A stretch of DNA of 64,000 nt from a gamma proteobacterium SCGC AAA168-P09 (GCA_000385055.1 ARRL01000001.1:292934-356933); one strand, 5' to 3'; shown: positions 13,684 to 64,000, counted from the stretch's first letter. The notes: generated from the letters alone by a model not told the origin. Made by a program: numbers and translations.

Positions 13684-13689
13684 CATATT

Positions 13690-14169: not shown

Positions 14170-14175
14170 AATACG

Positions 14176-14204: not shown

Positions 14205-14258
14205 AGTTCAAATGTTGAACGGTGCTAATTAAAAAAAATTATTTTAATTATTAATCCG

Positions 14259-14271: not shown

Positions 14272-14286
14272 TAACCCAATCATTTT

Positions 14287-14318
14287 TTGACACATAAATC
14301 ACTTCTGCTAAATTAGCA
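14287..14318 (+). promoter_or_regulatory. second promoter (TTGACA-N16-TAAATT, extended -10) with overlapping inverted repeat TGCTA-AAT-TAGCA
   Basis: TTGACA 14287-14292; TGcTAAATT 14306-14314; palindrome 14306-14318, just upstream of the MarR-type gene. Confidence 0.5.
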
Positions 14319-14323
14319 ATCTC

Positions 14324-14635: not shown

Positions 14636-14641
14636 TTTTTT

Positions 14642-15589: not shown

Positions 15590-15672
15590 GCTTCTAGATT
15601 TCAATTATTAAATTTATAGTATCAAGAAAAACCGCTGCGATGACAATATTAATTTTATAGAGAAATGTACTT

Positions 15673-16359
15673 ATGATTGTTTGTATAATTCCTGCTAGAG
15701 GAGGCTCAGAGGGAATACCAAAAAAGAATCTCTTGCCTATATGTGGTCAGCCGCTAATAGGGTGGACAATAGATAGTGCTCTTGAAACGCAAGAAATAGA
15801 CGAGATATTTGTTTCTACCGATGATGATGAGATTGCTAACTTTGCTAAAAGTAAAGGCGTAAAAGTTATTAAAAGGCCAGTCGAGATTTCTGGCGGTGAT
15901 GCTAGTTCTGAATCAGCAATTATACATGCGCTCAATGTGATTGAGGAGTCTGTAGATTGTAAGATCACTTTAACCGTTTTCTTGCAAGCTACTTCTCCTT
16001 TGCGTGTTAGCAAAGACATTTCAGAGGCAATTCTCTTATTTAGGGATAGTAATGCTGATTCCTTGTTCTCTTCAAGCGTTGCTGCTGATCTTACAATTTG
16101 GAATAATGGCCCCTATGGCTTGGAAAGTGTGAATTTCGACTATAAAAAAAGGTTGATTAGGCAGGTGGCTCCAATACAATACGTGGAAAACGGGTCTATT
16201 TATATTTTTCGTCCGAAACTACTTTTAGAAACGGGGAATAGATTAGGGGGACGGATAGAGACCTACATTATGCAGCCATGGCAGATTCATGAGATTGATG
16301 TGCAAGAAGATGCTGAACTTGTTGAATATTATATGGAGAGATATATCATTGGAAAATAG
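15673..16359 (+). CDS. acylneuraminate (nonulosonate) cytidylyltransferase, NeuA-like
   Basis: IIPARGGSEGIPKKN, VSTDD, LQATSPLR, ENGSIY, EID. Confidence 0.9.
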   Translation: MIVCIIPARGGSEGIPKKNLLPICGQPLIGWTIDSALETQEIDEIFVSTDDDEIANFAKSKGVKVIKRPVEISGGDASSESAIIHALNVIEESVDCKITLTVFLQATSPLRVSKDISEAILLFRDSNADSLFSSSVAADLTIWNNGPYGLESVNFDYKKRLIRQVAPIQYVENGSIYIFRPKLLLETGNRLGGRIETYIMQPWQIHEIDVQEDAELVEYYMERYIIGK

Positions 16360-17488
16360 TAAAATAAGCTTTAGATTAAGATCAGATATACTTATAGAGC
16401 AAGGGCTATTAAAAAATTTTAAGGAGCACGTGAATGGCCTTGGTGTGAACAGTCCTCTGTTTCTTTGTGATAAAAATTTAGAAACATCTGAATATTTTGG
16501 AGCTATTAAATCACAACTACAGAGCTTCGCAGAAGGGAGTGAATTCAAGTTTTTGGAGTTGAAGGGTGAGCCCAGCTACGAACTATTGTCCGATCTGCTT
16601 TGTGAGTTAGACATGAGTAGCATTGACTGTATCGTATCAATTGGTGGTGGAAGTACCATGGATATTGGCAAGGGGCTTGCTTTGCTTGCCACTAATCCAG
16701 CAGAGCCAAAGACTTTGAAAGGATTCCCAGTTGGATTAAATAGCCCCTTACCACACATTACCGTTCCTTCGGTCTTGGGTAGTGGTGCTGAAGCTAGCTT
16801 TAACGCTGTCTTTATTGATGAAGCTGAAGGGCGAAAATTGGGGATTAACTCACTAAATAACTTCCCGACTTTAGTATTGGTGGATCCACTTCTCACAATG
16901 AGCGCTCCTAAATCAGTAGTTATCTCATCTGCTTTAGATTGCATGGTCCACTGCGTGGATAGTTTTGGTTCAAAAAAATCTACTCCTATATCTAAGATGT
17001 TTTCAATTGAGGGATTTAAAAATGCCTGGAATTTCCTTGCAATGGGAGATTTAGATGAACCGGAGGCAAGAATGTTTTTGGCACAGGCTAGCATTTTGGG
17101 TATCTACGCGCTGATGAACTCGGGAGATGGCCCCACGAATGGTTTTGCTTATTACTTTGGGGTGCAAGATAATATACCCCATGGTATGGCTGGTGGCATG
17201 TTTCTAAAAGATGTTATGGAGTGGAATTTTATAAACGGGTATGACTCTTATGATAAGTTAATAAGTGATACTCATAATTTGGATATGACTCATTTTTTAT
17301 CTGATTTTTCTAAAGTGCTGAAGGCTTTTTCAGTGCCAAAGTTATCTGATTATGGATACGTAAATACTGATATTGAAGAGTTGAGTTCGAAAGTTGCATT
17401 ATCATTGACGGGGTCATTTTCTGGCAACCCAATACCATTCAACCAAGACTCAGCTAAATGGGTCCTATCTCAACAATTCAAAGGATAA
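16289..17488 (+). CDS. iron-containing alcohol dehydrogenase family protein, KdnB-like (true start probably later, near 16349)
   Basis: GGGSTMDIGK, P...GSGAEAS, RKLGINS, DCMVHCV, HG motif. Confidence 0.8.
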   Translation: MRLMCKKMLNLLNIIWRDISLENSKISFRLRSDILIEQGLLKNFKEHVNGLGVNSPLFLCDKNLETSEYFGAIKSQLQSFAEGSEFKFLELKGEPSYELLSDLLCELDMSSIDCIVSIGGGSTMDIGKGLALLATNPAEPKTLKGFPVGLNSPLPHITVPSVLGSGAEASFNAVFIDEAEGRKLGINSLNNFPTLVLVDPLLTMSAPKSVVISSALDCMVHCVDSFGSKKSTPISKMFSIEGFKNAWNFLAMGDLDEPEARMFLAQASILGIYALMNSGDGPTNGFAYYFGVQDNIPHGMAGGMFLKDVMEWNFINGYDSYDKLISDTHNLDMTHFLSDFSKVLKAFSVPKLSDYGYVNTDIEELSSKVALSLTGSFSGNPIPFNQDSAKWVLSQQFKG

Positions 17489-40399: not shown

Positions 40400-42032
<1,633 letters not shown>

Positions 42033-48771: not shown

Positions 48772-50445
48772 ATGTACAAAACTGATTTAGAAATAGCAAA
48801 TAATGCTTCAAAAAAACATATTAAAGATATAGCTGCATTATTAAACATTCCCGAGGATGCATTAATTGTATACGGCAATGATAAGGCTAAAATTAATTAT
48901 AATTTTTTAGATTCTTGCAAAGATAAAAAAGATGGAAAATTAATACTTGTCACAGCAATTTCCCCCACTCCAGCTGGAGAGGGAAAAACAACCACTAGCG
49001 TTGGCTTAGTTGATGGCCTATGTCATATAGGTAAAAAAGCAATGATATGTCTTAGAGAGCCTAGCTTAGGCCCATGTTTTGGAATGAAGGGTGGTGCTGC
49101 TGGTGGTGGCTATGCACAAGTTGTTCCTATGACAGATATCAATCTTCATTTTACTGGTGATTTTCATGCAATTGGAGCTGCTCATAATTTGCTTTCTGCA
49201 TTAGTTGATAATCATATTCATTGGGAAAATACTTTAAGCCTTGATCCAAGAAGAATTACTTGGAGACGAGTAGTTGACATGAACGATAGATCATTAAGAG
49301 ATATTACATGCGGACTCGGAGGAACAGGTAATGGTATTCCACGGCAGAGTGGTTTTGATATTACTGTAGCATCAGAAATCATGGCTGTTTTTTGTCTAGC
49401 AAGTGATTTAGAAGATTTGCAACATAGAATTGGTAATATTGTAGTTGGGTATACAAAAACTCAAGAGGCTGTAAAAGTAAGTCAATTAAATGCTCAGGGT
49501 GCAATAACTGCTTTGTTAAGAGATGCTTTTCAACCTAACTTAGTTCAAACCCTTGAAAATAACCCAGCATTAATGCATGGGGGTCCTTTTGCAAATATTG
49601 CTCATGGATGTAATTCCGTTATGGCAACAAAAAGCGCTTTAAAAATGGCTGACTTTGTTGTTACTGAAGCAGGTTTTGGTGCTGACTTGGGAGCTGAAAA
49701 ATTCTTTAATATTAAATGTAGAAAAGCGGGTCTATCTCCAGATGCTGTAGTTCTAGTTGCAACAACCAAAGCCCTTAAAATGCATGGTGGTGTTAAAAAA
49801 GAAGACTTAAAAGAAGAAAATATACAGGCAGTAAAAGATGGATGTAAAAACCTTGAAAGGCATATCCAAAACATAGGTAAATTTGGAGTTCCAGTAACGG
49901 TTGGCATTAATGAATATTACACTGATACTAAAGATGAGCATCAAGCAATAATAGATTTTTGTCAAAGTCATGGCGTTGCTTGCATAATATCTTCCCATTG
50001 GGAAAATGGCGGAAAAGGGGCTGCGGATTTAGCCTCACATGTTGCAGAACTAGTAGATGGCAATGAGTCCTCATTTAAAACTTTATATGATGATGAAATG
50101 TCCTTATGGGAAAAGACTAAACATATTGCTACAAGTATTTATGGCGCTAGTGATATTATCGCCGATAAAAAAGTAAGAAATAAATTTAAGAAATTAGAAG
50201 ATGATGGTTATGGAAAGTACCCAATTTGTATGGCAAAAACTCAATATAGTTTTTCTACAGATCCATTGCTTATGGGGGCACCATCTGGGCATGAAGTACC
50301 TATTAGAGAGGTGAGACTTTGTGCTGGAGCAGAGTTTGTTGTTGTTATCTGTGGTGAGATTATGACGATGCCTGGGTTGCCTAGAAAGCCAGCATCTGAA
50401 AGTATTGGAATTGATGAGAATAAGAATATAGAAGGCTTATTCTAA
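48772..50445 (+). CDS. fhs: formate--tetrahydrofolate ligase (likely ATG 48772)
   Basis: [62 protein letters not shown]. Confidence 0.97.
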
Positions 50446-50470
50446 TTTACAAAAATTTTAAGAGTATATT

Positions 50471-51889
50471 ATGAAAGATAAATTACAGTTTTATATAAAC
50501 GGCACTTGGGTTGAGTCTAATTCAAGTGAAATGATTGAGGTTATAAATCCTGCAAATGAAGAAATAGTAGGTCATGTAACTGCTGGAACAAAAGTTGATA
50601 TTGATAAGGCAGTTCAGGCAGCAAACAAAGCCTTCAAGACATATCAATATACTTCAAAGGATGATCGCATTGAGATTTTAAATAATATTATTACAGAATA
50701 TGAAAATAGGTACGATGATTTTGTTCAAACTATTACAGAAGAAATGGGAGCTCCTATATGGCTTTCAGAAAAAGCTCAGGCATCTACAGGAATTAAAAAT
50801 TTACATGAAACCCTTGATGCATTAAAAGAATATCAATTTGAAAAAAAAGAAGGTGATTACACTCTCATAAGAGAGCCTATTGGTGTCATAGGAATGATTA
50901 CCCCTTGGAATTGGCCTATGAATCAAATAACTACCAAGGTCTCAGCAGCTCTAGCTGCTGGCTGTACCATGGTGCTGAAGCCTAGTGAAATTTCGCCATA
51001 TTGCGCAATGCTATTGGCCGAAGTTTTTGATAAAGCTGGAGTTCCAAATGGAGTTTTTAATCTTGTAAATGGATATGGACCCACAGTAGGTGCAGCTTTA
51101 TCTGATCACCCAAATGTGGCTATGATGTCATTTACAGGATCTACTAGAGCTGGAATAGCAGTTGCTCAAGCATCTGCAGTCTCAGTAAAAAGAGTTCATC
51201 AAGAACTTGGCGGCAAATCTTCAAATATCATCCTTGATGATGTTGCAGACTTAGAAAAATCTGTAAAAGGTGGTGCAGGGCACTGTTTTTTGAACTCAGG
51301 ACAATCATGTAATGCACCAACAAAAATGCTAGTTTCTGAAAAAAATTATGATAAAGCTGTTGAAATTGCAGCTCAAACTGCAAATAACACAACCGTAGGT
51401 GATCCTCATGGCGAGTTTAGAATTGGTCCTATAGCTAATAAAGCTCAGTATGAAAAGATTATAAAAATGATAGAAATTGGTATTGAAGAGGGCGCTACTT
51501 TAGTTGCAGGCGGCATAGAAAAGCCAGAAGGTTATGACAAAGGCTATTATATAAAACCTACTGTATTTGCAAACGTTACTAACGACATGACAATTGCAAA
51601 AGAAGAGATTTTTGGTCCTGTCCTATCAATTCTTAAGTACAGCTCTGAAGATGAGGCAATAGATATAGCAAATGACACTGAGTATGGTTTAGCAGGGTAT
51701 GTTCAAGGTGAACCAGCACACGCAAATGAAGTTGCAAGAAAGATTAGAGCAGGACAAGTTATTATAAATGGTGGAGCAAGAGGAACTGGGGCACCATTTG
51801 GTGGCTACAAATCATCAGGAAACGGAAGAGAGCATGGTATGCATGGATTAGAAGAGTGCCTAGAAACTAAAGCAGTTATAGCTCCTTAA
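50471..51889 (+). CDS. aldehyde dehydrogenase family protein
   Basis: ITPWNWP, LKPSE, SFTGST, QELGGKS, NSGQSC, EEIFGPV, PFGGYKSSGNGRE. Confidence 0.95.
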   Translation: MKDKLQFYINGTWVESNSSEMIEVINPANEEIVGHVTAGTKVDIDKAVQAANKAFKTYQYTSKDDRIEILNNIITEYENRYDDFVQTITEEMGAPIWLSEKAQASTGIKNLHETLDALKEYQFEKKEGDYTLIREPIGVIGMITPWNWPMNQITTKVSAALAAGCTMVLKPSEISPYCAMLLAEVFDKAGVPNGVFNLVNGYGPTVGAALSDHPNVAMMSFTGSTRAGIAVAQASAVSVKRVHQELGGKSSNIILDDVADLEKSVKGGAGHCFLNSGQSCNAPTKMLVSEKNYDKAVEIAAQTANNTTVGDPHGEFRIGPIANKAQYEKIIKMIEIGIEEGATLVAGGIEKPEGYDKGYYIKPTVFANVTNDMTIAKEEIFGPVLSILKYSSEDEAIDIANDTEYGLAGYVQGEPAHANEVARKIRAGQVIINGGARGTGAPFGGYKSSGNGREHGMHGLEECLETKAVIAP

Positions 51890-51890
51890 T

Positions 51891-52700
51891 TTAATCTAAT
51901 AAATCCGGTTCTCTTTTAAGAATCATGTCATATGCAGGCTGATAGCTTGCCCATGCTGCGATATCATTTGCTATAAAATCTCTAGTCTTTATAGCAGTTT
52001 CATGAGGAATAACTACAGGTGTACCCGCTGCTTCGGCCATTAGTTGAGCCTGGCAACATCTTTCCATTGACATATAAAACCATAGAGCAATATCCACAGA
52101 CGGGCCTGTAGTTAGAATTCCGTGATTTTGAAGAATAATAACTTTTTTATCACCCAAAGCTTTTGCAATCTCATCACCCTCATCAATCTCCTCTACAACT
52201 CCTGAAAAATCCTTATACATTGCCTGTGTTTCATAAAAAGCACATGCATCTTGTGAAATAGGATCGAGAGGTTTACCAAGAGTAGAAAAAGTTCTTCCGT
52301 AAATAGAATGAGAGTGAGCAGCAGCATTTACATCTGGTCTTGCTGCATGAAGCCTAGAGTGGATTGCAAAGGCAGCAACATTAACATCTTTATCTCCTTG
52401 GACAACCTTTCCCTCATGATTGACTAAAATTAAATCTGAAACAGAAATTTGTGAAAAATGGACTCCAAGAGGATTTACCCAAAAATGATCAGGAAATTCT
52501 GGATCTCTTAGAGTTATATGTCCAGCAACACCTTCATTAAAGCCAAAGTAGGCAAACATTCTAAAACCCGCAGCAAGTTTTTCGAGCTGGTTTCTTCTTA
52601 GTTCTGCTGTATTGGCAAACTCAGTCATTTCAAGACCTTTTCCCTTCATAGGAAGTCTTCCGTCAGTAGTATCTATCTTTATTGGTGAAACATTTGTCAT
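51891..52700 (-). CDS. class II aldolase/adducin family protein
   Basis: GHIT.RDP, FW.NP.G, AAF.IHS..H.ARPD...A.H.H, L.NHG. Confidence 0.92.
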   Translation of the reverse strand: MTNVSPIKIDTTDGRLPMKGKGLEMTEFANTAELRRNQLEKLAAGFRMFAYFGFNEGVAGHITLRDPEFPDHFWVNPLGVHFSQISVSDLILVNHEGKVVQGDKDVNVAAFAIHSRLHAARPDVNAAAHSHSIYGRTFSTLGKPLDPISQDACAFYETQAMYKDFSGVVEEIDEGDEIAKALGDKKVIILQNHGILTTGPSVDIALWFYMSMERCCQAQLMAEAAGTPVVIPHETAIKTRDFIANDIAAWASYQPAYDMILKREPDLLD

Positions 52701-52758
52701 TCTATATCCCTCTATTCCTTATTGAATGTTAAAATAGCTTACCAAAAAAAGAGATATT

Positions 52759-54150
52759 ATGAAATTTAGAATTGAAAAAGATAGTCTTGGAGAAGTTAAG
52801 GTTCCTCAAAAGGCTTTGTGGGGAGCTCAAACTCAAAGAGCTCTAGATAACTTTACTATAAGCGGCATTAAATTTGCCTTCCCTTTTGGAAGATCTTTTA
52901 TTGAAGCTTTGGGCATAATCAAGTATTCAGCAGCAGCAGCTAATAATAATTTAAAGTTATTACCTTCAAATAAGGCTAAAGCTATTAAATCAGCTGCAAA
53001 AGATGTATTAAATGGTTTACATGACGACTCATTCCCTCTTGATGTTTTTCAAACAGGATCTGGAACAAGCACCAATATGAATGCTAATGAAGTCATTGCT
53101 AATTTAGCTTCAAAAAGATCAAAACTAAAAATTGATGCTAATGATGATGTTAATATGAGCCAAAGCTCAAATGATGTCATTCCAACAGCAATTTGCGTAA
53201 GTGCTCTAATAGATATGCATAGATTGCTTCTCCCAAATCTTGATCATTTAATTAAAGCAATTGATACAAAAATGAAGCAAGTAAAAGGCAACGTAAAAAC
53301 AGGCAGGACACATTTAATGGATGCCATGCCAATTGATTTTTCACAAGAGTTATCTGGATGGAAAGCTCAGCTAGAAGCGAATAAGAAAATTATAGTATTA
53401 GCTACAAACAGAATGAATGAACTTCCTCAGGGCGGAACAGCTATTGGGACCGGCATAAATACTCATAAAGATTTTTCAAAAAACTTCTGTTATGAATTAA
53501 ACAAACTCTCTAAGTTTAAAACCAAACCTTCTAAGAATTTTTATCAAGGTTTAAGTTCCGTTGATAATGCAGTAGAGCTTTCTTCAGCTATTAAAAATTT
53601 AAGTATTATTTTGATGAAAATTTCTAATGATCTTAGATGGATGAATAGTGGACCATTAACAGGTTTGGCAGAAATAGAGCTTGAAGCGCTTCAACCTGGA
53701 AGCAGCATAATGCCTGGCAAGGTAAATCCGGTAATACCAGAGGCCGTGGCAATGGCTTGTGCTGATGTGATTGGAAATGATGTTACTGTAACTCTTGCAG
53801 GTCAAAGCGGTAATTTTCAATTAAATGTGATGTTGCCTGTTGTAGCTTATAACCTTTTAAAAAGTATTAATCTTTTAGGTAATGCAATGCCGCTTCTTGC
53901 AAACAAGGCTATAAAAACATTTAAAGTAAATTCAAAAAATATAAATGAATCTTTATCAAAAAATCCCATTCTTGTAACGGCACTCAATAGAATAATTGGT
54001 TATAGCAAGGCAGCAGCTATTGCTAAAAAAGCTTATAAAGAAAGTAAATCGATAATTGACGTAGCATATGAAGAAACTGGTATGAGCAAAGCTGAGTTAA
54101 AAAAATTATTAGATCCGGTAAAATTAACCAAAGGTGGCATTAGTGAATGA
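52759..54150 (+). CDS. fumC: class II fumarate hydratase
   Basis: RIEKDSLG, WGAQTQR, QTGSGTS.NMN.NEV, KTGRTHLMDA, GSSIMPGKVNP. Confidence 0.92.
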   Translation: MKFRIEKDSLGEVKVPQKALWGAQTQRALDNFTISGIKFAFPFGRSFIEALGIIKYSAAAANNNLKLLPSNKAKAIKSAAKDVLNGLHDDSFPLDVFQTGSGTSTNMNANEVIANLASKRSKLKIDANDDVNMSQSSNDVIPTAICVSALIDMHRLLLPNLDHLIKAIDTKMKQVKGNVKTGRTHLMDAMPIDFSQELSGWKAQLEANKKIIVLATNRMNELPQGGTAIGTGINTHKDFSKNFCYELNKLSKFKTKPSKNFYQGLSSVDNAVELSSAIKNLSIILMKISNDLRWMNSGPLTGLAEIELEALQPGSSIMPGKVNPVIPEAVAMACADVIGNDVTVTLAGQSGNFQLNVMLPVVAYNLLKSINLLGNAMPLLANKAIKTFKVNSKNINESLSKNPILVTALNRIIGYSKAAAIAKKAYKESKSIIDVAYEETGMSKAELKKLLDPVKLTKGGISE

Positions 54151-54481
54151 TTTAGCTTCAAATGCTTGTGAGGCATGCAGAATTGACGCCCCCAAAGTTT
54201 CAGATGATGAAGTAAATATATTGCTAAAAGAAATTGATAATTGGGATTTAATGAACGAAGGTATTAAAAAGTTAAAAAAAACTTTTAGCTTTTCAAGCTA
54301 TAAAGATTCCTTAGATTTTACTAATAAAGTCGGTGATATGGCTGATAAAGAAGATCATCACCCAGAAATTACTCTCGAATGGGGTAAAGTGACTGTTGTT
54401 TGGTGGTCTCATAAAATTGAAGGCCTCCACAAAAATGACTTTATATGTGCGGCAAAAACAGACCAATTAAATAATTACTAA
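54134..54481 (+). CDS. phhB: pterin-4-alpha-carbinolamine dehydratase
   Basis: CEACRIDAP, A..EDHHPEI..EWGKV.V.WW.H.I.GLH.NDFI.AAKTD. Confidence 0.9.
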   Translation: MALVNDLASNACEACRIDAPKVSDDEVNILLKEIDNWDLMNEGIKKLKKTFSFSSYKDSLDFTNKVGDMADKEDHHPEITLEWGKVTVVWWSHKIEGLHKNDFICAAKTDQLNNY

Positions 54482-54486
54482 CTAAT

Positions 54487-54714
54487 ATGGAACAAAACGA
54501 AAAACCTTATCAATCATTAGCATGGCTTGCCACTGGCATTCTTATTATTGCAGCTGCATTGGCCAGCTTTGTACCAGAGCTAGAATATCATCACTGGGCT
54601 TTTATATCCGCTAATACATTGTGGGTATATGTTGGGTGGTTGTGGAAAGAGCAATCATTGATAGTCCTTAATGCTGGATTAACATTGATTTATATTTTAG
54701 GACTAATATTCTAA
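54487..54714 (+). CDS. small membrane protein (DUF6552-like hypothetical)
   Basis: 75 aa, three hydrophobic segments, W..VG.LWKE.SL..LN. Confidence 0.65.
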   Translation: MEQNEKPYQSLAWLATGILIIAAALASFVPELEYHHWAFISANTLWVYVGWLWKEQSLIVLNAGLTLIYILGLIF

Positions 54715-54740
54715 GAATTATTTTTTTTTAAATTTAGTCT

Positions 54741-54749
54741 TGCTATAAT
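54741..54749 (+). promoter_or_regulatory. extended -10 promoter TGcTATAAT directly upstream of guaB
   Basis: Perfect extended -10 ending 5 nt before ATG 54755. Confidence 0.55.
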
Positions 54750-54754
54750 CCGAC

Positions 54755-56218
54755 ATGGAAAAAGTAAAACAAAAAGCACTAACATTCGATGATGTCCTGC
54801 TTTTGCCAAGGTACAGTGACTTTATACCTAGCGAAGCATCAACTCAAACAAAACTCACAAAAAATATAACTATCAAGGTACCCTTGGTATCTGCTGCTAT
54901 GGATACCGTCACTGAATCAAGCATGGCAATAGCTCTAGCTGAAGTAGGTGGGATTGGTATTATTCATAAGAATAACTCTATTGAAGAACAAGTATCTCAA
55001 ATAAAAACTGTCAAAAAATATGAAAGTGGTGTTGTTAGAAACCCTATTACAATTGAATCAGACAAATCAATAGGCGAATTAATTCAACTAACTACCGAAC
55101 TAAATATCTCTGGGATGCCTGTTGTTGATGATAATAAATTAAAAGGAATAGTAACAAGTAGAGATTTTAGATATGCAGATAATTTGGGTGCTTTAGTCTC
55201 TTCAATCATGACCCCATTTGACGAGCTAATTACAGTAGTAGAGGGAACCTCACAAGACTCAGTAAAAAAATTAATGCATGAAAATCGAATCGAAAAAGTG
55301 TTAGTGATAGATAAATCAGGAATGCTTAGCGGACTAGTTACTATGAAAGATATTGAAAAGTCAGCAGAGCACCCAGATGCAACTAAAGATGATTCAGGTA
55401 GCTTAATGGTTGGTGCTGCACTTGGAACTGGATCGGATACTCTAGAACGAGCAATAGCATTAAGTGAGGCTGGAGTGGATGTATTTGTTATTGATAGCGC
55501 ACACGGTCATTCAAAAAACGTTGTTGATACAATTAAAATGATTAAAAAAGAGCTACCAGGCATCGATATAATTGGTGGTAATGTAGCAACACCTGAAGGA
55601 GCATTAGATTTAGTAAAGGCTGGGGTTGATGGGGTGAAGGTGGGAATGGGACCTGGTTCTATTTGTACAACACGTATTATTGCTGGGATTGGTGTACCAC
55701 AAATAACCGCAATACTTGATATTAAAGATGCTATCAAAAAACATGATGTGGGTATTATTGCTGATGGTGGAATAAGATTTTCAGGTGACATTGCAAAAGC
55801 TATAGCAGCAGGTGCTGACTCGGTCATGCTTGGAGGTTTATTTGCTGGAACAGAAGAAGCGCCAGGCAAAGTTGAACTATTTCAAGGAAGAAGTTTTAAA
55901 ACATATCGAGGTATGGGCTCGATTGGTGCCATGACCGAAAGACATGATGCAAATAGATACATGCAAGAAGATTTAGATTCTGAAAAATTAGTACCTGAGG
56001 GTATTGAAGGAAGAGTTCCCTATAAAGGCCTTGTAGCTAATGTAATAAATCAGTTAGTTGGTGGATTAAGGCAGTCGATGGGCTACATTGGTTGTAAAAC
56101 CATTAAAGCAGTTCATGAAGATAGTGAGTTTGTTGAAATTACAAACGCAGGTATGACCGAAAGCCATGTTCATGATGTCATGATTACAAAGGAAGCACCT
56201 AACTACCAAAGAAGTTAA
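54755..56218 (+). CDS. guaB: IMP dehydrogenase
   Basis: [20 protein letters not shown] pair, [28 protein letters not shown]. Confidence 0.98.
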
Positions 56219-56227
56219 TCATTAAAT

Positions 56228-57796
56228 ATGGCTGCCAATTTATCAACCACATCTAAACAGATAGATACCATTCTAGTTCTAGATTTTGGATCTCAATATA
56301 CACAGTTAATTGCAAGAAGGATAAGAGAGAGTAACGTCTACTCAGAAATACTGCCTTGGGATATTAATGAAGAAAAAATCAAATCAATTAACCCTAAAGG
56401 TATTATTTTGTCTGGAGGTCCAGACTCAGTTACGAATAGCTATACACCACGAGTTCCCCAAGTAATTTTTGATTTAAATATTCCCATTTTAGGTATTTGT
56501 TATGGAATGCAAACACTTGCAGAACAACTTGGAGGACAAGTTATTTCATCTGAGCAAAAGGAATTTGGATATTCAGAACTTAACATTACTGCAGATTGCA
56601 TATTATTTTCTGAATTGGGTAAAACGTTAAATGTATGGATGAGCCATGGAGATCAGGTGCAAGATCTGCCAGATAATTTTGATTTAGTAGCAGCAACATC
56701 TACCGCTCCAATTGCTGCAATGCAGCATACAAGCAAGCCTATCTATGCCTTGCAATTTCACCCTGAGGTAACTCATACAGAAGATGGTAAAACAGTCTTA
56801 GATAATTTTATTTTTAAAGTATGTGATGCAAAGACAGACTGGAAAATGGACGATTTAATAGGACAAAGAATTCAAGAAATTAAAAATCAAGTTCAAGATA
56901 ATAAAGTCCTGCTTGGTCTCTCGGGCGGAGTTGATTCTTCAGTCACTGCTGCACTTTTGCATCAAGCTATAGGCAAAAAGCTTGTATGCGTCTTTGTAGA
57001 TAATGGCTTATTAAGAAAAGGCGAAGCTGAAGAAGTTATGAATACTTTTAAAGAGAATATGAATTTAAATGTTATAAAGTCAGACAGTGAAGAGGTATTC
57101 TTAAGACATTTAAAAGATGTAAAAGATCCTGAACAAAAAAGAAAAATTATTGGGAGAACTTTTATTGATGTTTTTGATGCTGAGGCAACAAAATTAAAAG
57201 ACGTTAATTTTTTAGCACAAGGAACTATTTACCCTGACGTAATTGAATCTTCCGGTTCAGAATCTAAAGAAGCAAGGGTTATAAAATCTCATCATAATGT
57301 TGGCGGATTACCAGAAGAAATGAAGATGGAATTAGTTGAACCATTAAGAGACTTATTTAAAGATGAAGTCAGAAGAATGGGTGTTGAACTTGGCTTGTCA
57401 TCAGAAATGTTAAACAGGCATCCGTTTCCAGGTCCAGGTCTTGGAGTTAGAATTTTAGGAGATATTACCAAAGAGAAAACAAGAATTTTAAAAGAGGCTG
57501 ATCATATTTTCATAGAAGAGCTCTTAAAAGCAGATCTATATAAAACAGTTAGCCAGGCTTTCGCAGTTTATTTACCAATAAAATCAGTTGGTGTTGTTGG
57601 TGACGAGAGGAGATATGCTGAAGTTATAGCTCTAAGAGCAGTAGAGACAGTAGATTTTATGACTGCAAGATGGGCGCATCTTCCTTATGAGTTTTTAGAG
57701 CATGTATCTAATAGAATAGTAAATGAGATAGAAGAAGTTAGCAGGGTGGTCTATGACATCTCAAGTAAACCTCCAGCTACAATTGAGTGGGAATAA
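56228..57796 (+). CDS. guaA: GMP synthase (glutamine-hydrolysing)
   Basis: [58 protein letters not shown]. Confidence 0.98.
57779..57796 (+). repeat. att core copy 1 (natural guaA 3' end, ACAATTGAGTGGGAATAA)
   Basis: Last codons T-I-E-W-E-stop of guaA. Confidence 0.95.
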
Positions 57797-57857
57797 TGAG
57801 AAATTTTTAAAAAAAATATAAAATGTTTTTTTATTCAAATTTAAAGGAGGTAGAGAG

Positions 57858-58139
57858 ATGGAATTGAAACTAATATTTATGCTATCGAGTGATGTGGAAG
57901 TATCAGATACTGCATACGGACTAAACTTCAGAAAAGAAATCGAAGAGGTTTATGTTGGTGATACTTGGCAAGAGTGCTGCGATGAAGCATCTGATTATTG
58001 GGATTACGATACAACTATGTTTCCAACAGACGAAAATGGAGACATTGGAGATACTAGAAAAGACCTAATAAAAGTCCGTAAAAAAGTAGACTCAAATTGG
58101 GAAGAATACAGCGAAGAAGAAGAAGAAAAAAATTATTGA
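57858..58139 (+). CDS. hypothetical acidic protein, cassette 1 cargo
   Basis: 93-aa ORF with strong SD AAGGAGGT (57844-57851) 6 nt before ATG. Confidence 0.75.
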   Translation: MELKLIFMLSSDVEVSDTAYGLNFRKEIEEVYVGDTWQECCDEASDYWDYDTTMFPTDENGDIGDTRKDLIKVRKKVDSNWEEYSEEEEEKNY

Positions 58140-58272
58140 TTACTTCGACGAACTGTATGAAAAAAAAATGATGGCTGGTTAAATTGCAGTTTTGAAAAAG
58201 ACTTGTAAACTACTTGTAAACTCGATTTTGCCCCTCGTAAACCCTTGCTACATAAGGCTTTGTAAAAGGGTA

Positions 58273-58290
58273 ACTATTGAGTGGGAATAG
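58273..58290 (+). repeat. att core copy 2 (ACTATTGAGTGGGAATAG)
   Basis: 16/18 identical to the guaA 3' end; still reads TIEWE*. Confidence 0.95.
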
Positions 58291-58509
58291 TCGTTTTCCT
58301 CGCAAACCCCCATTCTTAAAGGGTTTAGCATTCTAAAAACAGTTACAAACTTGTTACAAACTCCTCTGTAGACTCCATTCCTTCGTAGCAGTTACAAACT
58401 TACTCGACTATTGCGATTCATTAAATGTTTTTAAGTATTACGTTTATTTATGTTGAACAAAAATACAAATTATAATAAGTTATATAATTAGATCCAATTC
58501 AAAAAACTT

Positions 58510-58998
58510 ATGAAAAAACTACTTCAAAAAACACAACTCACAATTCTATTATTTACAACTATTTTTTTTAGTACAAGTATATATTCTGAAGGTTGGTTGG
58601 ATAGTGATGGAAATTACCTTTCAATCATTAGAGCAAAAGAAGGTAACCGATTTGATGCTCAAGCATGGGCTCAGGTTAATCAGAGTATGAATTGTGAATT
58701 AAATGTCTTTCTTAACATGGATTCATTTAGCAATACTCTCCCAGCCATTATAGCAACAGTCAATGATGTTAGGGTTAGTTTTACATTATTTCTGAAGAGT
58801 GGAAATACAGCAGTTTATCAAGCGACATCTATTAAAGGCAGAAAATATTTCAAAGATCAGTTTTTTAAAAGCACCGCAGTAAACATAAAATTTTCCAATG
58901 GTGGTTTTGAAAGAGATAATTTAGTTTCAACGAAATATTTCACAGAAGCCTCAAATCATTTTGTTGAAGAATGCAGGAAAAAGGGCGAGATTCTATAA
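58510..58998 (+). CDS. hypothetical exported protein, cassette 2 cargo
   Basis: 162-aa ORF with N-terminal signal-peptide-like segment. Confidence 0.75.
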   Translation: MKKLLQKTQLTILLFTTIFFSTSIYSEGWLDSDGNYLSIIRAKEGNRFDAQAWAQVNQSMNCELNVFLNMDSFSNTLPAIIATVNDVRVSFTLFLKSGNTAVYQATSIKGRKYFKDQFFKSTAVNIKFSNGGFERDNLVSTKYFTEASNHFVEECRKKGEIL

Positions 58999-59256
58999 AT
59001 ATGCAAATATCAGTATTAAATATGCAATGTAGCTAATCGTGTAACTGACCTATTAATCTTTGCATACAACCCTTAGTAAATTTATAGTCCTCCTTAAGGT
59101 TACAATGTTTGTAACTCGGCATCTGCTAAAGTGTTGATATTACAAGGGTTTTGAGAGGTTATGACAGTAAGAAAAATAGGCAAGAGTTACAAAGTAGTTA
59201 CAAACTACAGAATGCCCCTTGTAAACCATTGTTCTTACAAGGTTTTTTATAACACT

Positions 59257-59274
59257 ACTGTTGAGTGGGAATAG
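59257..59274 (+). repeat. att core copy 3 (ACTGTTGAGTGGGAATAG)
   Basis: Reads TVEWE*; one change versus copy 2. Confidence 0.93.
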
Positions 59275-59696
59275 TTGTAAATAGCACGAAACCCTGTTCT
59301 ATAGGGGTTTAAAGCAATATAAAGTGTGACAAACTCTGTCATGGCAAAGAAAGAATGCGGGTTTCAGGGTACTAAAATCAAACATACGGCAAACTCTTGC
59401 TGCTATTGAAAGTCATAAGTTCATGACGTAATAATTAAACGAGATGATTAAAAATGAAAATTACTGCCAACAGAGAGGAATATTTTCTAAAGTGGATGCA
59501 GTGAGGACGGGATTAAATAATGTAATCAAAGACTACGAATTAACTACACTCGGAACGCAATAAAACAGTATTCGTGTTGGGAGAGGTGTTAGTCCTAATC
59601 ACCTTTTCAGTTGGGAGTAAAATTCAAGAACTCTTATATTTCAAAAATTCTTTAATTTATTATAGACTTGAGGTCTATTAATTAAAAAATGATGAC

Positions 59697-60302
59697 TTGA
59701 ATATGAATAAAATTTACATCTTCTTTGGATTGATTCTTCTTGCCTCTTGTGCCCCCCTCAATGAAGTCCCCTCTAGAAACCTCGTTGAAAGAAATGGAAT
59801 CAAATACGAAATTAACTCCCAAACACCTTTTACTGGTATTTCTGTTAGTTCATGGAACAATGGTCAATTAGGAAAAAAACAAACCTACAAAGACGGAAAA
59901 CTAGACGGACTTTCTGAGAGGTACCTCGAAAACGGTCAATTGTTTTGGAAAACAACCTACAAAAACGGAAAACAAGACGGACTTTTTGTGGAGTATTATA
60001 TGAACGGTCAATTAGCATCTAAAAATATCTTCAAAGAAGGAAAAGTAGACAAATTTTGGGAGGATTATTGGATAAATGGTCAATTAGAATCTAGAACAAC
60101 CTACAAAGACGGAAAAGAAGACGGACCTTTTGAGACCTACTACGAGAACGGTCAATTGAAATCTAAAGGAAACTACAAAGACGGAAAACAAGACGGACTT
60201 GTGGAGAGATACGACGAGAACGGTCAATTGAAATCTAAAGGAAACTACAAAGACGGAAAACAAGACGGACTTGTGGAGAGATACGACGAGAACGGTCTTT
60301 AG
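59697..60302 (+). CDS. MORN-variant repeat lipoprotein (YwqK-antitoxin-like family), cassette 3 cargo; likely ATG 59703
   Basis: Lipobox LASC; repeated ENGQL..K.TYKDGK.DG..E.Y units. Confidence 0.82.
   Translation: MNMNKIYIFFGLILLASCAPLNEVPSRNLVERNGIKYEINSQTPFTGISVSSWNNGQLGKKQTYKDGKLDGLSERYLENGQLFWKTTYKNGKQDGLFVEYYMNGQLASKNIFKEGKVDKFWEDYWINGQLESRTTYKDGKEDGPFETYYENGQLKSKGNYKDGKQDGLVERYDENGQLKSKGNYKDGKQDGLVERYDENGL
60142..60297 (+). repeat. exact 72-bp tandem repeat (about 2.2 copies) in the MORN-repeat gene
   Basis: ACGAGAACGGTC starts at 60142, 60214 and 60286 with identical intervening sequence. Confidence 0.95.
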
Positions 60303-60667
60303 AATTCTTCTAGAAACGGTTGATACGCAGATATGTCTTTCTGCGAGAAATAATTAGTCATCCCCTTGTTGAAGAGGAGGTGTGTTCATCAAATTAAACT
60401 TGTATGAACACTTTTATTCAATTTGTAAGTATTGTATTTAATGGGGTTCTAGAGACTCTATATTTGATATTTTATAGGGGCATTGATGAAGACAATTTTT
60501 CTATTATTGAGTATGAATAAGGTGGTTTTATAGAGACTATCTTTGTCACAAAATAGGTTAAAATGAGGAAGATGATAGTAAAAACACAAAACAGTCATGA
60601 CAAACTTATGACAAACTATTTTTTTCATCTCTGTATCCCTTTTTTTATAAGGGTTTAAAATATTGCA

Positions 60668-60685
60668 ACTATTGAGTGGGAATAG
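60668..60685 (+). repeat. att core copy 4 (ACTATTGAGTGGGAATAG)
   Basis: Identical to copy 2. Confidence 0.95.
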
Positions 60686-60915
60686 ATTGTCGCCCTACAA
60701 CCCCCATTCCTACAATATTCTATAGTTACACGATAGTTACTAAGTCCTTGTAACTAAAGCATTCCTTAATTCGAGTTACACGAAATCTCCACTATTGCAA
60801 TCTAATAGAAGGCAACGCCTATTTAGGTATGATTTTAAAGAAAGAATCCATATATTATGCTGGAATTTATATGGTACTGAGGGCGAAAAATAGGAATAAA
60901 ATAACTCTCTATAAT

Positions 60916-61323
60916 TTAAGCAAAGATTTGAGAATAAGCCATATAAGCAATAATTAACCACCCAGTCACAAAAATACCAAATCGTACCACTACTATATTA
61001 AATGTTAATTGCCATAGTGAATGGACAATTCTTAAAATTACATATACCCATGCCAATTGAATCATTAAAGCATCAAAATTATTTATAATGGCAATGCATA
61101 TCGTAAGTGCATAAAATGCAACCGGCTGCTCAAAAAGATGATTGTAATTATCTGAAGTTCTTTCCACCCAAGCAGGCATTAATCCTCTTAAGTCTTTTGT
61201 ATGGGCTGCATCCTTCTGCGGATTTTTAGTGTATTTAAATCTGCCATAAGCCATTATTAAAAAAATAGTAAAAGTCCAAAGTACTAAAACCAATACCGGT
61301 GTTAAAAGTGCTGTCTGATTCAT
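60916..61323 (-). CDS. MAPEG-family membrane protein, cassette 4 cargo
   Basis: R...NYNHLFEQPV.FY, LAW.YV.LRI.HS, three to four TM segments. Confidence 0.85.
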   Translation of the reverse strand: MNQTALLTPVLVLVLWTFTIFLIMAYGRFKYTKNPQKDAAHTKDLRGLMPAWVERTSDNYNHLFEQPVAFYALTICIAIINNFDALMIQLAWVYVILRIVHSLWQLTFNIVVVRFGIFVTGWLIIAYMAYSQIFA

Positions 61324-61559
61324 AATTTTTTCCTCTACCTTATTAACAATAACAGAGATGTAAATATTTGAAAAGGGTATGTTTGGAGTAGGGCATTAAG
61401 GTTACAATGTTTGTAACTTACAAGTCGCTAAGTTACTGATACAACAGAGGAATTGGTTTAATGGGTAGAACAAAAAAAGAAGGTAAGAGTTACACGAAAG
61501 TTACACGCTTTTATTTTCGTGCTTGTAGCCCTTTGTCTATACGGCTCTATAAATCAGCG

Positions 61560-61577
61560 ACTATTGAGTGGGAGTAA
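61560..61577 (+). repeat. att core copy 5 (ACTATTGAGTGGGAGTAA), right boundary of the array
   Basis: Reads TIEWE*; followed after 12 bp by the NCS2 permease stop codon, with no arm motifs beyond it. Confidence 0.93.
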
Positions 61578-61589
61578 ATTCTTTCTAAA

Positions 61590-62891
61590 TTAATCTAGCA
61601 CAATAAATTTTAATAAGAAAATTAAAAAAAGAAACCAGGCTCCAAAACTAATATCTGATTTTTTTCCTGCAGCAAATTTAAGCACAACGTAACTAATAAA
61701 CCCTATAGCTATTCCATTGGCTATAGAGAAGGTTAAAGGAATCATAATAATCATAATTAAAGCTGGCAATAGTTCGGTATTATCCGACCAATCAAGTTTC
61801 TCCATGCCGCCTAGCATTAAAATTGCAACATAAATAAGAGCCCCTGCTGTTGCATAACTTGGAACCATAGATGCAAGAGGTGAGAAGAAAATTGCTATTA
61901 AGAAAAATATACCTACTGTTATTGCAGTTAATCCCGTTCTTCCGCCAGCCTCTACACCTGCTGAACTCTCAACATAACTTGTAACAGGCGAACAGCCAAA
62001 AAATGATCCAGCAACACTGGCAGTGCTATCGGCCTTTAAAGCCCTATCAAGATTTTTTATTTTTCCCGATTCATCTATCAAGTTTGCTCGAGATGCAACA
62101 CCAAGTAGGGTGCCAGCAGTATCAAATAAATTAACAAAAAGAAAAGAAATAATAACGCTTATCATTGCAACGTCTAATGCTCCAACAATATCTAATTTCA
62201 TCAACGTTGGCATCAAATCTGGTGGAGAAGAAACGAAGCCATTAAAATTAATTAACCCAAGCAATAACCCTGAAATAGTAACAGTGAGAACTCCAATGAT
62301 TATCGCACCAGTTACTTTTCTTATAGCCAGTATTAAAATCAAAAGAAAACCAACAGCTGCAAGCAAGGTTTCAATATTTTTAAAATTACCCATACTTAAA
62401 AAAGTTGCTTCATTTTGAATGATAATCCCACCTGTTTTTAAGCCAATAAAACCCACAAATAAGCCAACACCTGCTCCCATAGCAATCCTAAGATTCATAG
62501 GAATACTATTAAGCATCCACTGTCTTAAGGGAGTAACGCTGATGATTACAAATAAAATACCAGCTAAAAAGACTGCTCCAAGAGCTACCTCCCAGGAATA
62601 ACCCATTTCTCCAACAACTGTATAAGTAAAGAAAGCATTTAACCCCATCCCTGGAGCTAAACCAACAGGCCAGTTTGCATAAAGACCCATTGCAAAACAT
62701 GCAATAGCAGCAGCAATGCATGTTCCAACAAAACTTGCTCCATAATCCATGCCACTTGATGCCATCATTTGTGGATTAACAAAGATAATGTAAGCCATTG
62801 TTATAAAAGTGGTGAAACCAGCTAAGAATTCTTGTTTAATGGAAGTGCGGTTTAATTTAAGCTGAAAGGTTTTTTCTAAAAATTTTTCCAT
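61590..62891 (-). CDS. NCS2/AzgA-family purine permease
   Basis: E..AG.TTF.TMAYIIFVNP, LAPGMGLNAFF, FVNLFDT.GT, TSYVES.AGV.AGGRTGL. Confidence 0.93.
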   Translation of the reverse strand: MEKFLEKTFQLKLNRTSIKQEFLAGFTTFITMAYIIFVNPQMMASSGMDYGASFVGTCIAAAIACFAMGLYANWPVGLAPGMGLNAFFTYTVVGEMGYSWEVALGAVFLAGILFVIISVTPLRQWMLNSIPMNLRIAMGAGVGLFVGFIGLKTGGIIIQNEATFLSMGNFKNIETLLAAVGFLLILILAIRKVTGAIIIGVLTVTISGLLLGLINFNGFVSSPPDLMPTLMKLDIVGALDVAMISVIISFLFVNLFDTAGTLLGVASRANLIDESGKIKNLDRALKADSTASVAGSFFGCSPVTSYVESSAGVEAGGRTGLTAITVGIFFLIAIFFSPLASMVPSYATAGALIYVAILMLGGMEKLDWSDNTELLPALIMIIMIPLTFSIANGIAIGFISYVVLKFAAGKKSDISFGAWFLFLIFLLKFIVLD

Positions 62892-63068
62892 AATTTTACT
62901 AGATTATAATTTACATAATCATTCTACAATGCATAATGTTAGATTACTTAACATACTTGCTCTTTACACCATTTTTTGGCATGTAAATTGCTTTTTATAA
63001 TAATATAAACAACTTAATTATGTGCTGCACTAAAGTTTTTACCATAAGCACAAGGGGATATTAAACCA

Positions 63069-64000
63069 ATGAAAATTTTAAAATTGCATTCAGTAATATA
63101 TTTATCACTGTTTTTTTTGTTTAATTTTGATGCTCAAGCACAAAGTTCAGCTATTGAAGAGGTGATTGTTTCTGCAGAAAAAAGAGATGAAAGTCTTCAA
63201 GATGTTTCCTTGTCTGTAACAGCATTAACAGAGCAGGAACTTGAAATTAAAAATATTACTGATTTTGTAGGACTAAGTGCAATAGCGCCAGGTGTTACCG
63301 TTGCTAAAAATGAAGGATATAAAACAATTATCTCTATAAGAGGTGTTGGTGATGAAACCAATCAAAACGCTATTGCGGCACCCTCTGTAGCGCTTCACAT
63401 GGATGGTATCTTTGTTGCTTCTAAGTTCTCACTAAGAACAGATTTTATTGACTTAGAAAGAATTGAGGTATTACGTGGTCCACAGGGCACTTTGTTTGGT
63501 CAAAATTCAACTGGCGGAACTATTAATATTATTAGTCAGAAACCATCTTTTGATGAAGCTAAAGGAAAAGCAGATATAGCTCTTGGAAATTATGGTCTAG
63601 TAAAACTTAGAGGTGCATTAAACTTGCCATTAACTGAAAAAGTTGCAACAAGAATGTCATTTGTTTCAACTGATAGGGATGGTTTTAGTAAAAATATTTT
63701 GAATAATCAAGATTTAGATGATGCTAATCATACTAGCTTCAGATCAGATTGGTTTTTTGACATATCTGAAAATACTTCCTTAAGGGTTTTTGGTCAATTT
63801 TTTGACGCAGATAATAATGGAGCTGCTATGAAGGGTTTGGATGATCCAACTCCAAATCCCAGAATGCTAGCACAGGATTCTTCATCTGATTATGAGCTTT
63901 CCTCTGAAATTATTGCAGGTATATTAAATGTAGAACTTGGCTTTGCTGATTTAAAAATACTTGCTAGCTCACAAGAAGATGATATATACGTTAGCAGAGA
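63069..64000 (+). CDS. TonB-dependent receptor, N-terminal part (runs off the window; absent from the ORF track)
   Basis: MKILKLHS... signal peptide, IEEVIVSAEKRDESLQDV, plug motif ERIEVLRGPQGTLFGQNSTGG.INI. Confidence 0.93.
   Translation, partial: MKILKLHSVIYLSLFFLFNFDAQAQSSAIEEVIVSAEKRDESLQDVSLSVTALTEQELEIKNITDFVGLSAIAPGVTVAKNEGYKTIISIRGVGDETNQNAIAAPSVALHMDGIFVASKFSLRTDFIDLERIEVLRGPQGTLFGQNSTGGTINIISQKPSFDEAKGKADIALGNYGLVKLRGALNLPLTEKVATRMSFVSTDRDGFSKNILNNQDLDDANHTSFRSDWFFDISENTSLRVFGQFFDADNNGAAMKGLDDPTPNPRMLAQDSSSDYELSSEIIAGILNVELGFADLKILASSQEDDIYVSR

Follow-up and report, generated by a model that had tools for sequence, protein, structure and literature searches.

The subject of this analysis is the end of guaA, the gene for GMP synthase, in a 64-kb stretch of DNA from the gamma proteobacterium SCGC AAA168-P09 (GCA_000385055.1, ARRL01000001.1:292934-356933; hereinafter the window, read on one strand, with coordinates counted from its first letter); by its GuaA sequence, the host belongs to the marine SAR86 lineage. 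The guaA gene occupies positions 56228-57796 on the plus strand (Pfam GATase and GMP_synt_C), and its native neighbour, a convergent gene for a xanthine/uracil-family permease (61590-62891, minus strand; PF00860), is the same as in the related contigs L001, L113 and L114. Between these two genes lies an array of four small cassettes (57797-58272, 58291-59256, 59275-60667 and 60686-61559), 0.5 to 1.4 kb in size, single-gene, and bounded by copies of a short core sequence. Cassettes 2, 3 and 4 each combine one cargo open reading frame (ORF) with full arms on both sides, and cassette 1 has a right arm alone, the left-arm repeats being absent. These four cassettes, none of which encodes an integrase, are elements inserted in tandem between guaA and its native neighbour. 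The direct repeats phased at 11 bp that are found in their arms are, with high probability, the arm-type sites of attachment (att) sites organized in the style of phage lambda.

A search for the core, ACT(A/G)TTGAGTGGGA(A/G)TA(G/A), finds five copies, all on the plus strand. The first (J0; 57779-57796, ACAATTGAGTGGGAATAA) consists of the last 18 nucleotides (nt) of guaA and forms an attL-type junction; the others start at 58273 (J1, ending at 58290), 59257 (J2, ending at 59274, ACTGTTGAGTGGGAATAG), 60668 (J3, ending at 60685) and 61560 (J4, ending at 61577, ACTATTGAGTGGGAGTAA). J1, a junction of the P-O-P' type, is composed of 6-bp inverted half-sites that flank 7 bp (ACTATT-GAGTGGG-AATAGT), and J4 is an attR-type junction, the right half of which, together with the DNA that follows, corresponds to the empty site of the relatives. 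The core word ATTGAGTGGGA, with at most one mismatch, is present in five copies in the window against 1.27 expected and, after the end of guaA, recurs at 58276, 59260 (as GTTGAG), 60671 and 61563. A 14-nt block, ACTATTGAGTGGGA, is common to the five window copies and more than 100 related junctions, across which the left half and GAGTGGGA are constant and the right half is variable (ARTRR). This right half also codes for the last Glu codon and the stop codon of guaA, whose reading frame is completed by each inserted element. Given the variable right half-site, we infer the exact overlap within the core.

The preliminary description of this DNA had reported, at the right end of each cassette, two direct repeats with an 11-bp period, the second of which starts 61 bp before the next core. 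This arrangement is found in all four cases and at the positions reported: ACTTGTAAAC at 58201-58210 and 58212-58221, AGTTACAAA at 59185 and 59196, (C/T)ATGACAAAC at 60596 and 60607, and AGTTACACG at 61488 and 61499. It is also the case that the intervening sequence has diverged and the spacing has been kept: a 78-nt segment that spans the second copy and the core is 62-72% identical between copies and aligns without gaps. The imperfect palindrome that had been noted in each end is present as well and conforms to AAACCnTT-N7-AAGGnTTT (58239-58261, 59223-59245, 60634-60656 and 61526-61548). Exact 9-nt direct repeats with an 11-bp period number five in the 64 kb, and all five (the four right ends and the left end at 58342) are inside the 3.8-kb array, with none in the other 60 kb; each of the control periods, 8-10 and 12-14, gives 0-2 exact repeats in the window and none in the array.

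The complete cassettes show a common anatomy. The left arm of cassette 2 (58291-58425) contains a dyad (58304-58326) and GTTACAAAC at 58342, 58353 (11 bp apart) and 58391, and its inner edge is a core-like inverted repeat, ACTATT-N7-ATTAAA (58407-58425); the right arm (59099-59256) consists of a distal inverted pair, GTTACAATGTTTGTAAC (59099-59115), a word that exactly matches the consensus for integration host factor (IHF; 59127-59139), the proximal pair and the dyad. In cassette 3, the left arm (59275-59420) includes a dyad (59289-59310), one arm copy, GTGACAAAC (59326-59334), and, at the inner edge, a combined core-like and promoter-like motif, GCTATTGAAAGTCATAAGT (59402-59420), with a promoter-like match, TTGAAA/AATAAT, at 59406-59435; the right arm (60542-60667) begins with an inverted copy, TTTGTCAC (60542-60549), followed by the proximal pair and the dyad. 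In cassette 4, the left arm (60686-60809) carries GTTACACG at 60725, GTTACTAAG 11 bp later at 60736 and GTTACACG again at 60775, and ends in ACTATT-GCAATCT-AATAGA (60791-60809), and the right arm (61401-61559) has a distal inverted pair (61401-61417) and an IHF-like word with one mismatch (61429-61441) upstream of its proximal pair and dyad. Because three cassettes keep complete left (P') and right (P) arms, every internal junction is an attP-like P-core-P' site. The cargo consists of an ORF for 93 amino acids in cassette 1 (57858-58139) and one for 162 amino acids in cassette 2 (58510-58998), neither with a family match, a MORN_2-repeat protein of 201 amino acids in cassette 3 (59697-60302; PF07661), with five 72-nt tandem repeats at 59853-60350, and a membrane protein of the MAPEG family in cassette 4 (60916-61323, 135 amino acids; PF01124), all encoded on the plus strand except for the last one, which is on the minus strand. 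A search of positions 57500-61900 against Rfam gave no RNA family at E <= 1.

The core-like repeats at the inner edges of the left arms belong to a wider pattern, ACTATT-N7-A(A/T)TA(A/G)GT, which lies at +120 to +145 in many left arms (in the window at 58407-58425, 59402-59420 and 60791-60809, and elsewhere, for example, in L007, L129, L141, L150 and L160) and repeats the core half-sites. This second repeat directly precedes the start of the integrase or cargo gene and overlaps a promoter-like motif, TTGAAA/TTGCGA ... TAAT. It may be an operator of the integrase at its own promoter that was co-opted for cargo expression.

How far does this geometry extend beyond the window? A metagenome scan for the left-end pattern yielded 120 loci, and statistics of right ends were obtained for 126 non-redundant ends. 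The best direct-repeat period is 11 bp in 57 of the 126, compared to 1-4 ends for each other period from 8 to 14. When all ends are placed in a single register and the separation of the second copy from ATTGAG is measured, 21-25 ends have a value of 61, 6 ends have 62-63 and 8-11 ends have 52 (the 61 bp to ACT of the preliminary description corresponds to class 61 in this register). Twenty-four class-61 ends align without gaps over 89 columns, with a mean identity of 71%, and carry at least five arm words (TGTAAAC, TACAAAC, GACAAAC, AACAAAC and TACACG/A). The 9-bp difference between the two classes is located between the arm pair and the dyad, and the distance from the dyad to the core is equal in both. 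Left ends show the 11-bp period in 49 of 177 cases and a 12-bp period in 25, with the first copy at +56/57 or +66-68. Conservation of the spacing in homologous ends, which had been named beforehand as the test of the proposal, is thus observed in many other SAR86-type contigs. The adjective 'invariant', however, is adequate within one spacing class and not for the family, which comprises two (61-63 bp and 52 bp); strict 61-bp invariance is ruled out by the 52-bp class, which includes the integrase-bearing elements L117 and L240. The arm-to-core spacing is quantised rather than invariant.

The arm words of one and the same cassette go together. The left and right words match with a mean score of 7.6, against 3.0 +/- 0.6 under the null, and none of the 5000 permutations reaches 7.6. 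In the window, the words found on both sides are GTTACAAAC in cassette 2, (G/A)TGACAAAC in cassette 3 and GTTACACG in cassette 4, and CTTGTAAAC, comparable to the arm word of cassette 1, flanks both sides of cassettes in other contigs (L140, L209 and L222). Altogether, the natural variants include about a dozen arm words on one common core. A rule under which adjacent cassettes never share an arm word was considered and is broken by L135 and L197, where neighbouring cassettes have the same word.

In other contigs, the arms are the only part of cassette 2 that is conserved, the left one over about 130-148 bp and the right one over 163 bp. At least six contigs with unrelated cargo have these arms at 88-94% identity. 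The 163-bp right block, which starts exactly at the distal inverted pair, at 59099, is 92-94% conserved in L127, L006, L157, L173 and L187, again with unrelated cargo, and the left arm is 84-94% conserved in L127, L006, L173, L149 and L141. The same frame is present in hosts with a GuaA that is 81% identical (L006) and in a contig of 46% G+C (L141). Such conservation around unrelated cargo appears to reflect selection on the arms rather than on the cargo. Comparison of the left arm of cassette 2 with L114, L141 and L006 further shows that indels in the arms come as whole repeat units.

Comparison of closely related contigs reveals empty, single and multiple occupancy of the site, always with junctions at the core. 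The closest genome (L001) and a contig with an identical GuaA (L115) join guaA directly to the permease flank (...ACTATTGAGTGGGAGTAGATTC....); of the other contigs with an identical GuaA, L113 contains cassette 1 alone, at 99.6% identity, L114 contains cassette 2 and a 4.7-kb version of cassette 3, the right end of which is shared with the window, and L116 contains a different cassette. In other SAR86 species, between one and three cassettes, with arm words other than these, occupy this site. Because empty, single and multiple occupancy with the same core is seen among relatives, the last codons of guaA are an insertion hot spot. Cassette 3 (59275-60667) and its L114 version (12552-17283) have the same two ends and an interior that is the same only in part; by comparison of the two sequences, cassette 3 could be a deletion derivative or, alternatively, the L114 version a fused cassette pair. 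In L001 (10001-11964), the GuaA match spans 1964 nt compared to about 1569 nt, which may be due to an insertion or a split match.

Relatives with the same arm layout encode a tyrosine integrase of 380-460 amino acids, on the guaA strand, that starts about 150-340 bp after the core (L117, L218, L129/L170, L196, L168/L232, L237 and L240, and the start of one in L141). L117 is an island of 12.5 kb in which both ends have GTTACCTAC arms, L218 contains two integrase elements in tandem, and in L141 the left arm of cassette 2 itself is followed by the N-terminus of an integrase. The Pfam domains of these enzymes are Phage_integrase and Phage_int_SAM_5, and the AlphaFold model of one of them (P0001; predicted local distance difference test, pLDDT, 84.6) has an N-terminal four-stranded sheet with a helix; among PDB entries, the full model is best matched by lambda Int in its full length (1z1b; E = 3.5e-9). 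At least 388 metagenomic proteins belong to the family, some of them encoded away from guaA, and elements with different integrases also have different arm words. Two contigs, L168 and L232, represent the same element of about 10.6 kb in circularly permuted form, with P-core-P' and int and without guaA; in L232, a stretch of 184 bp is present at both ends (95.7% identity), which, as far as sequence goes, fits either a circle or a tandem copy. Integrase-less single-gene cassettes, with full arms retained, greatly outnumber the integrase-bearing ones. The integrase gene was either lost from, or never carried by, each of the four cassettes of the window.

These findings come together most readily in the comparison with lambda attP, where a heterobivalent Int binds arm-type sites (P1, P2 and P'1-3) and IHF binds at H1, H2 and H'. 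Here, as in lambda attP, the core has a 7-bp spacer between inverted half-sites, both sides carry arm words that bear no relation to the core, with adjacent copies about one helical turn apart, a candidate bending site lies between core and arm on each side, and the total site is about 330 bp; the integrase model of the relatives is best matched by the lambda Int structure. The differences are that the SAR86-type integrase combines Phage_integrase and SAM_5 with a weakly DUF6538-like N-terminus, that the candidate bend site is a dyad (AAACCC..GGGTTT) instead of the canonical asymmetric IHF site, that the core is common to all elements and the arm words vary, and that the elements of the window lack an integrase. 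The lambda-style reading that had been put forward for these ends is, then, supported by the conserved spacing, by the co-variation of arm words, by the integrase-bearing relatives and by lambda Int as the best structural match.

Under this interpretation, a family of tyrosine integrases would target the last codons of guaA, with the catalytic and core-binding domains acting on ACTATT-GAGTGGG-ARTRRn and the N-terminal domain binding the phased arm words. A bending protein at the dyad or at the IHF-like word, about 32 bp on either side of the crossover, would fold the arm onto the core, and the fixed arm-to-core distance would keep the arm and core sites within reach and on the right face of the helix. 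Integrase-less cassettes would be mobile only with a matching integrase in trans. The anatomy, its conservation, the matching of arm words between the ends of a cassette and the integrase-bearing relatives are observed, whereas the assignment of proteins to sites and any present activity are what we infer.

The nature of the bend deserves closer attention. The preliminary description pointed to the word at 58238-58250 (TAAACCCTTGCTA), which indeed is one mismatch away from YAANNNNTTGATW; however, the window contains 211 such matches against 204 +/- 16 expected, and because the count is at the chance level, the match is no evidence when taken alone. It had also stated that the window encodes both IHF-like subunits. 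Two PF00216 proteins of the HU family are indeed encoded, both on the plus strand, with the best NCBIfam matches to IHF-beta (6403-6696) and IHF-alpha (41760-42032), but the respective scores, 58 and 74 bits, fall below the curated cut-offs of 115 and 111; it is possible that the IHF-beta-like protein is the host bending factor. The dyad itself holds a fixed position between the core and the arm pair on both sides: in 63 ends, its centre is 26 bp before the A of ATTGAG on the right and 38-40 bp after it on the left, so that the two centres are symmetric about the T of GAG-T-GGG, each about 32 bp away from the crossover centre. YAANNNNTTG is retained at -38 in many class-61 ends, and in the distant guaA elements L237, L238 and L240 an exact TAAGTCATTGATT follows the core by about 20 bp, with TAAGCGATTGAAA at -39 in L240 in addition. 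Because the dyad is conserved in position and the IHF consensus occurs in exact form at the corresponding site of distant relatives, an IHF-type bend is still plausible, and such bending at these att sites can be considered possible. The exact consensus at 59127-59139 lies between the distal and proximal arm sites of cassette 2 and has one-mismatch counterparts in cassette 4 (61429-61441) and L205. Two further readings of the palindrome were rejected, namely, a hairpin (71.4% of the positions pair, compared to 70.4% in shuffled sequences, and compensatory changes are not in excess) and a terminator (a terminator scan found none at the dyads); the palindrome is a sequence-conserved dyad and not a selected fold.

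A number of observations weigh against the lambda-style interpretation or, at least, against present activity of the array. No integrase was detected in the window (tblastn with three integrases of the family as queries gave only noise up to E = 10), and none is seen in the ORF listings and recorded Pfam matches of the arrays of the same species and of other SAR86. The N-terminus of the relatives' integrase gives sub-threshold matches to the arm-binding candidates (DUF6538, at most 24 bits; Arm-DNA-bind_3, E = 0.014). The spacing falls into two classes instead of being universal, the left and right words fail to match in two cassettes (L155 and L190), the left arm of cassette 1 is missing, and at 58391-58399 cassette 2 has one copy of GTTACAAAC where L114, L141 and L006 have two, 11 bp apart, which amounts to an 11-bp deletion. 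Finally, in comparisons with the same-species contigs (L113, L114, L115, L116 and L001), the flank upstream of the array (window 50000-57778) is 99.3-99.7% identical and the downstream flank (61578-64000, permease and TonB receptor) is 85-91% identical. Therefore, the differences between the arrays of strains need not reflect integrase activity in this lineage; judging by these identities, whole arrays may also be exchanged by homologous recombination. The end of guaA is a sharp boundary of divergence.

So could the cassettes be inert? The strongest alternative, tentative but to be taken seriously, is that they are decayed remains of once-autonomous guaA islands, with arms that are alike through shared, young ancestry, and that the differences between strain arrays come from homologous replacement of the whole region. 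This alternative agrees with the lambda-style interpretation on the identity of the sites and differs from it only on present function. It accounts for the lack of an integrase in the window and in same-species arrays, for the incomplete cassette 1 and the missing 11-bp unit of cassette 2, and for the decayed integrase in L144, and the contrast between the flanks is what homologous exchange would be expected to produce. It does not easily explain why ends that are only 62-72% identical are free of indels, why arms stay 88-94% conserved around unrelated cargo, why the left and right words co-vary, why one and the same cassette frame occurs in hosts as different as L006 and L141, and why integrase-less cassettes are far commoner than integrase-bearing ones and keep full arms. 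On balance, and from sequence comparison, the chance that the att sites of the window are still usable appears to be near even, perhaps somewhat lower.

A second alternative keeps the recombination complex and changes the ligand: the repeats would be sites for an accessory protein, such as an excisionase or another recombination directionality factor, or for another DNA-binding protein encoded by the element or the host, and not for the N-terminus of the integrase. In its favour are the behaviour of lambda Xis, whose binding sites in the P arm are direct repeats in tandem and in helical phase, the weak matches of the integrase N-terminus to known arm-binding families and the fact that the relatives also encode a recombinase of 190-200 amino acids with only the catalytic domain, along with small ORFs. 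We consider it rather improbable, however. The same word is found on both arms and again as distal inverted copies, as is characteristic of the arm sites of Int and not of Xis sites; the words differ between elements with differing integrases; and the integrase-less cassettes keep the sites even though they encode no accessory protein.

Still less can be said for regulatory operators or replication iterons that would serve the cargo genes and be unrelated to recombination. Direct repeats on the same helical face are typical of both, and the left arms do end in a promoter-like motif directly before the start of the cargo or integrase gene, but the right-end pairs lie downstream of the cargo, at a distance that is fixed to the core and not to any gene, cassettes that share arms have unrelated cargo, and annotation with Pfam and NCBIfam shows no replication genes in the cassettes, so that this explanation is very unlikely. 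Chance can be practically discarded: in this A+T-rich genome, short words, the IHF consensus among them, do occur as often as chance predicts, yet all five exact 9-nt repeats with the 11-bp period in 64 kb fall in the 3.8-kb array, and the 57 of 126 related ends with period 11 compare with at most 4 for any other period.

Returning to the lambda-style interpretation, several components of the system are familiar, namely, the lambda-type att architecture, islands at guaA and integrase-less units bounded by att sites. The guaA islands GIsul2 and ICERspD18B are inserted at the 3' end of guaA and include GAGTGGGA in the flanking direct repeat, which is the published core (PMC9376610, PMC7775301). 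The integrase of GIsul2 has been shown to recombine att sites and moves, in addition, an integrase-less att-bounded unit, CR2-sul2 (PMC9376610), and guaA islands have been described with P4-type integrases and AlpA (PMC7775301). The similarities with the SAR86 cassettes are, accordingly, insertion at the guaA 3' end with restoration of the guaA frame by the element, GAGTGGGA in the repeats there and ACTATTGAGTGGGA in the core here, and an integrase-less unit bounded by att copies, CR2-sul2 in one case and the cassettes in the other. The differences are substantial as well: the integrases reported for the islands are of the P4 type, whereas none was found in the window and the enzyme of the relatives is Phage_integrase with SAM_5 and a weak DUF6538-like region, its match to Arm-DNA-bind_3 being sub-threshold; tblastn of the GIsul2-bearing plasmids in PLSDB gave no match to the SAR86-type integrase (four weak, unrelated matches); and the islands are 15-30 kb long with resistance and conjugation genes, compared to the single-gene units of 0.5-1.4 kb in a streamlined marine genome.

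The integrase-less cassettes of the window fall under the definition of cis-mobilizable elements (CIMEs; PMC6323972): cassettes 2-4 lack integration and transfer genes and have intact attL and attR, and cassette 1, lacking a left arm, qualifies in part. CIMEs are, however, defined by an adjacent integrative and conjugative element (ICE) that mobilises them in cis, whereas the array has no integrase and, by ORF and Pfam annotation, no ICE and no conjugation genes between guaA and the permease; furthermore, the SAR86 cassettes are far smaller, and each has an arm word of its own. A similar layout is that of the tycheposons of Prochlorococcus, in which elements with tyrosine recombinases build hypervariable islands with tandem junctions and cargo bounded by target repeats; the preprint does not mention guaA or SAR86 (10.1101/2020.12.28.424599). 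The streamlined marine host, the fixed chromosomal site, the tandem junctions and the cargo between target repeats are shared. Tycheposons target tRNA-type sites, whereas the target here is guaA; the likeness is one of layout, apart from any comparison of integrase families. Like the cassettes of integrons, those of SAR86 are mostly single-gene, form a tandem, promoter-dependent array at one site and would employ a tyrosine recombinase from outside the cassette. Unlike integron cassettes, they have no folded site of the attC type, the dyad being without covariation, and no adjacent intI/attI/Pc platform, and they carry double-stranded lambda-type arms and a promoter-like motif of their own. 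No description of a SAR86 guaA island was found in the literature searched, and the papers on marine phage satellites and marine structural variants make no mention of guaA. Four features appear to be undescribed in that literature, namely, SAR86 as the host lineage, single-gene cassettes of miniature size, a shared core combined with many arm words and an integrase lineage without detectable similarity to GIsul2-bearing plasmids.

An intriguing, if doubtful, possibility is that the guaA site of SAR86 is a place of integron-like cassette exchange assembled from lambda-type parts, that is, a shared core, an arm word that serves as an address, an integrase acting in trans, cargo driven by a promoter and riders maintained by selection. 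Many integrase lineages would then use one core with diversified arm words, which is the reverse of the case of lambda and HK022. If this is true, the arm word would allow an integrase in trans to excise or insert exactly one cassette among identical cores, the cargo would be expressed from the left-arm promoter, which would once have served the integrase gene, and the integrase-less single-gene cassettes would be selected non-autonomous riders and not debris. If individual cassettes are addressed in this way, tandem mobile elements would be organised on a principle that is new.

Among the uncultured bacteria of the surface ocean, SAR86 ranks with the most abundant groups, and, to our knowledge, the gain and loss of flexible genes in streamlined genomes such as these is largely unexplained. 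The array suggests a concrete route, in which a single site at the end of guaA collects small cassettes with complete att sites of conserved architecture, and integrase-bearing relatives circulate in the same waters. Furthermore, the natural variants, with one core, about twelve arm words and two classes of spacing that differ by 9 bp, make up a series for the study of arm-to-core geometry in the complexes of tyrosine integrases.

Several additional observations concern the relatives and the cargo. A viral origin of the system was considered and rejected: the core matches in IMG/VR are guaA ends of unrelated low-G+C bacteria with prophages, and a search of this database with the SAR86-type left-end pattern produced two irrelevant matches. 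These prophage-type insertions (L084, L087, L093, L105, L109 and L111) are located at the same guaA codons and have 11-bp-phased arm words of their own (GGACTTAAAAT twice; TTTGCAAACAATTTGCAAAC). The end of guaA is a convergent target, at which phased arm pairs are common. At the other extreme of base composition, L240 (GCA_947466375.1, 59% G+C) is an A+T-rich element of the same integrase family at the guaA of a high-G+C genome, with class-52 arm spacing and with IHF-consensus words in place of the AAACCC dyad. In the L168/L232 element, a serine recombinase (resolvase-like, 184-187 amino acids) is encoded directly before the P arm and the tyrosine integrase directly after the P' arm, and the element's arm word, GTTTGTCG, is the common word GACAAAC in reverse complement. 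The conserved protein of integrase-bearing relatives that consists of the tyrosine-recombinase catalytic domain only (PF00589, E = 3.7e-22; 190-200 amino acids) is often convergent with the integrase gene (L117 in its oriented form, 9099-9698; L218, 5594-6202 and 7781-8350; L129, 1885-2457; L237, 9408-10004); the small ORFs found in the same relatives have no assigned function. Finally, cargo with MORN repeats similar to PF07661 recurs in the guaA cassettes of different SAR86 lineages, for example, in the window (59697-60302), in L007 (11712-12896) and in L117 (oriented; 6408-7169 and 9731-10285), and some of these proteins have lipoprotein-like N-termini.

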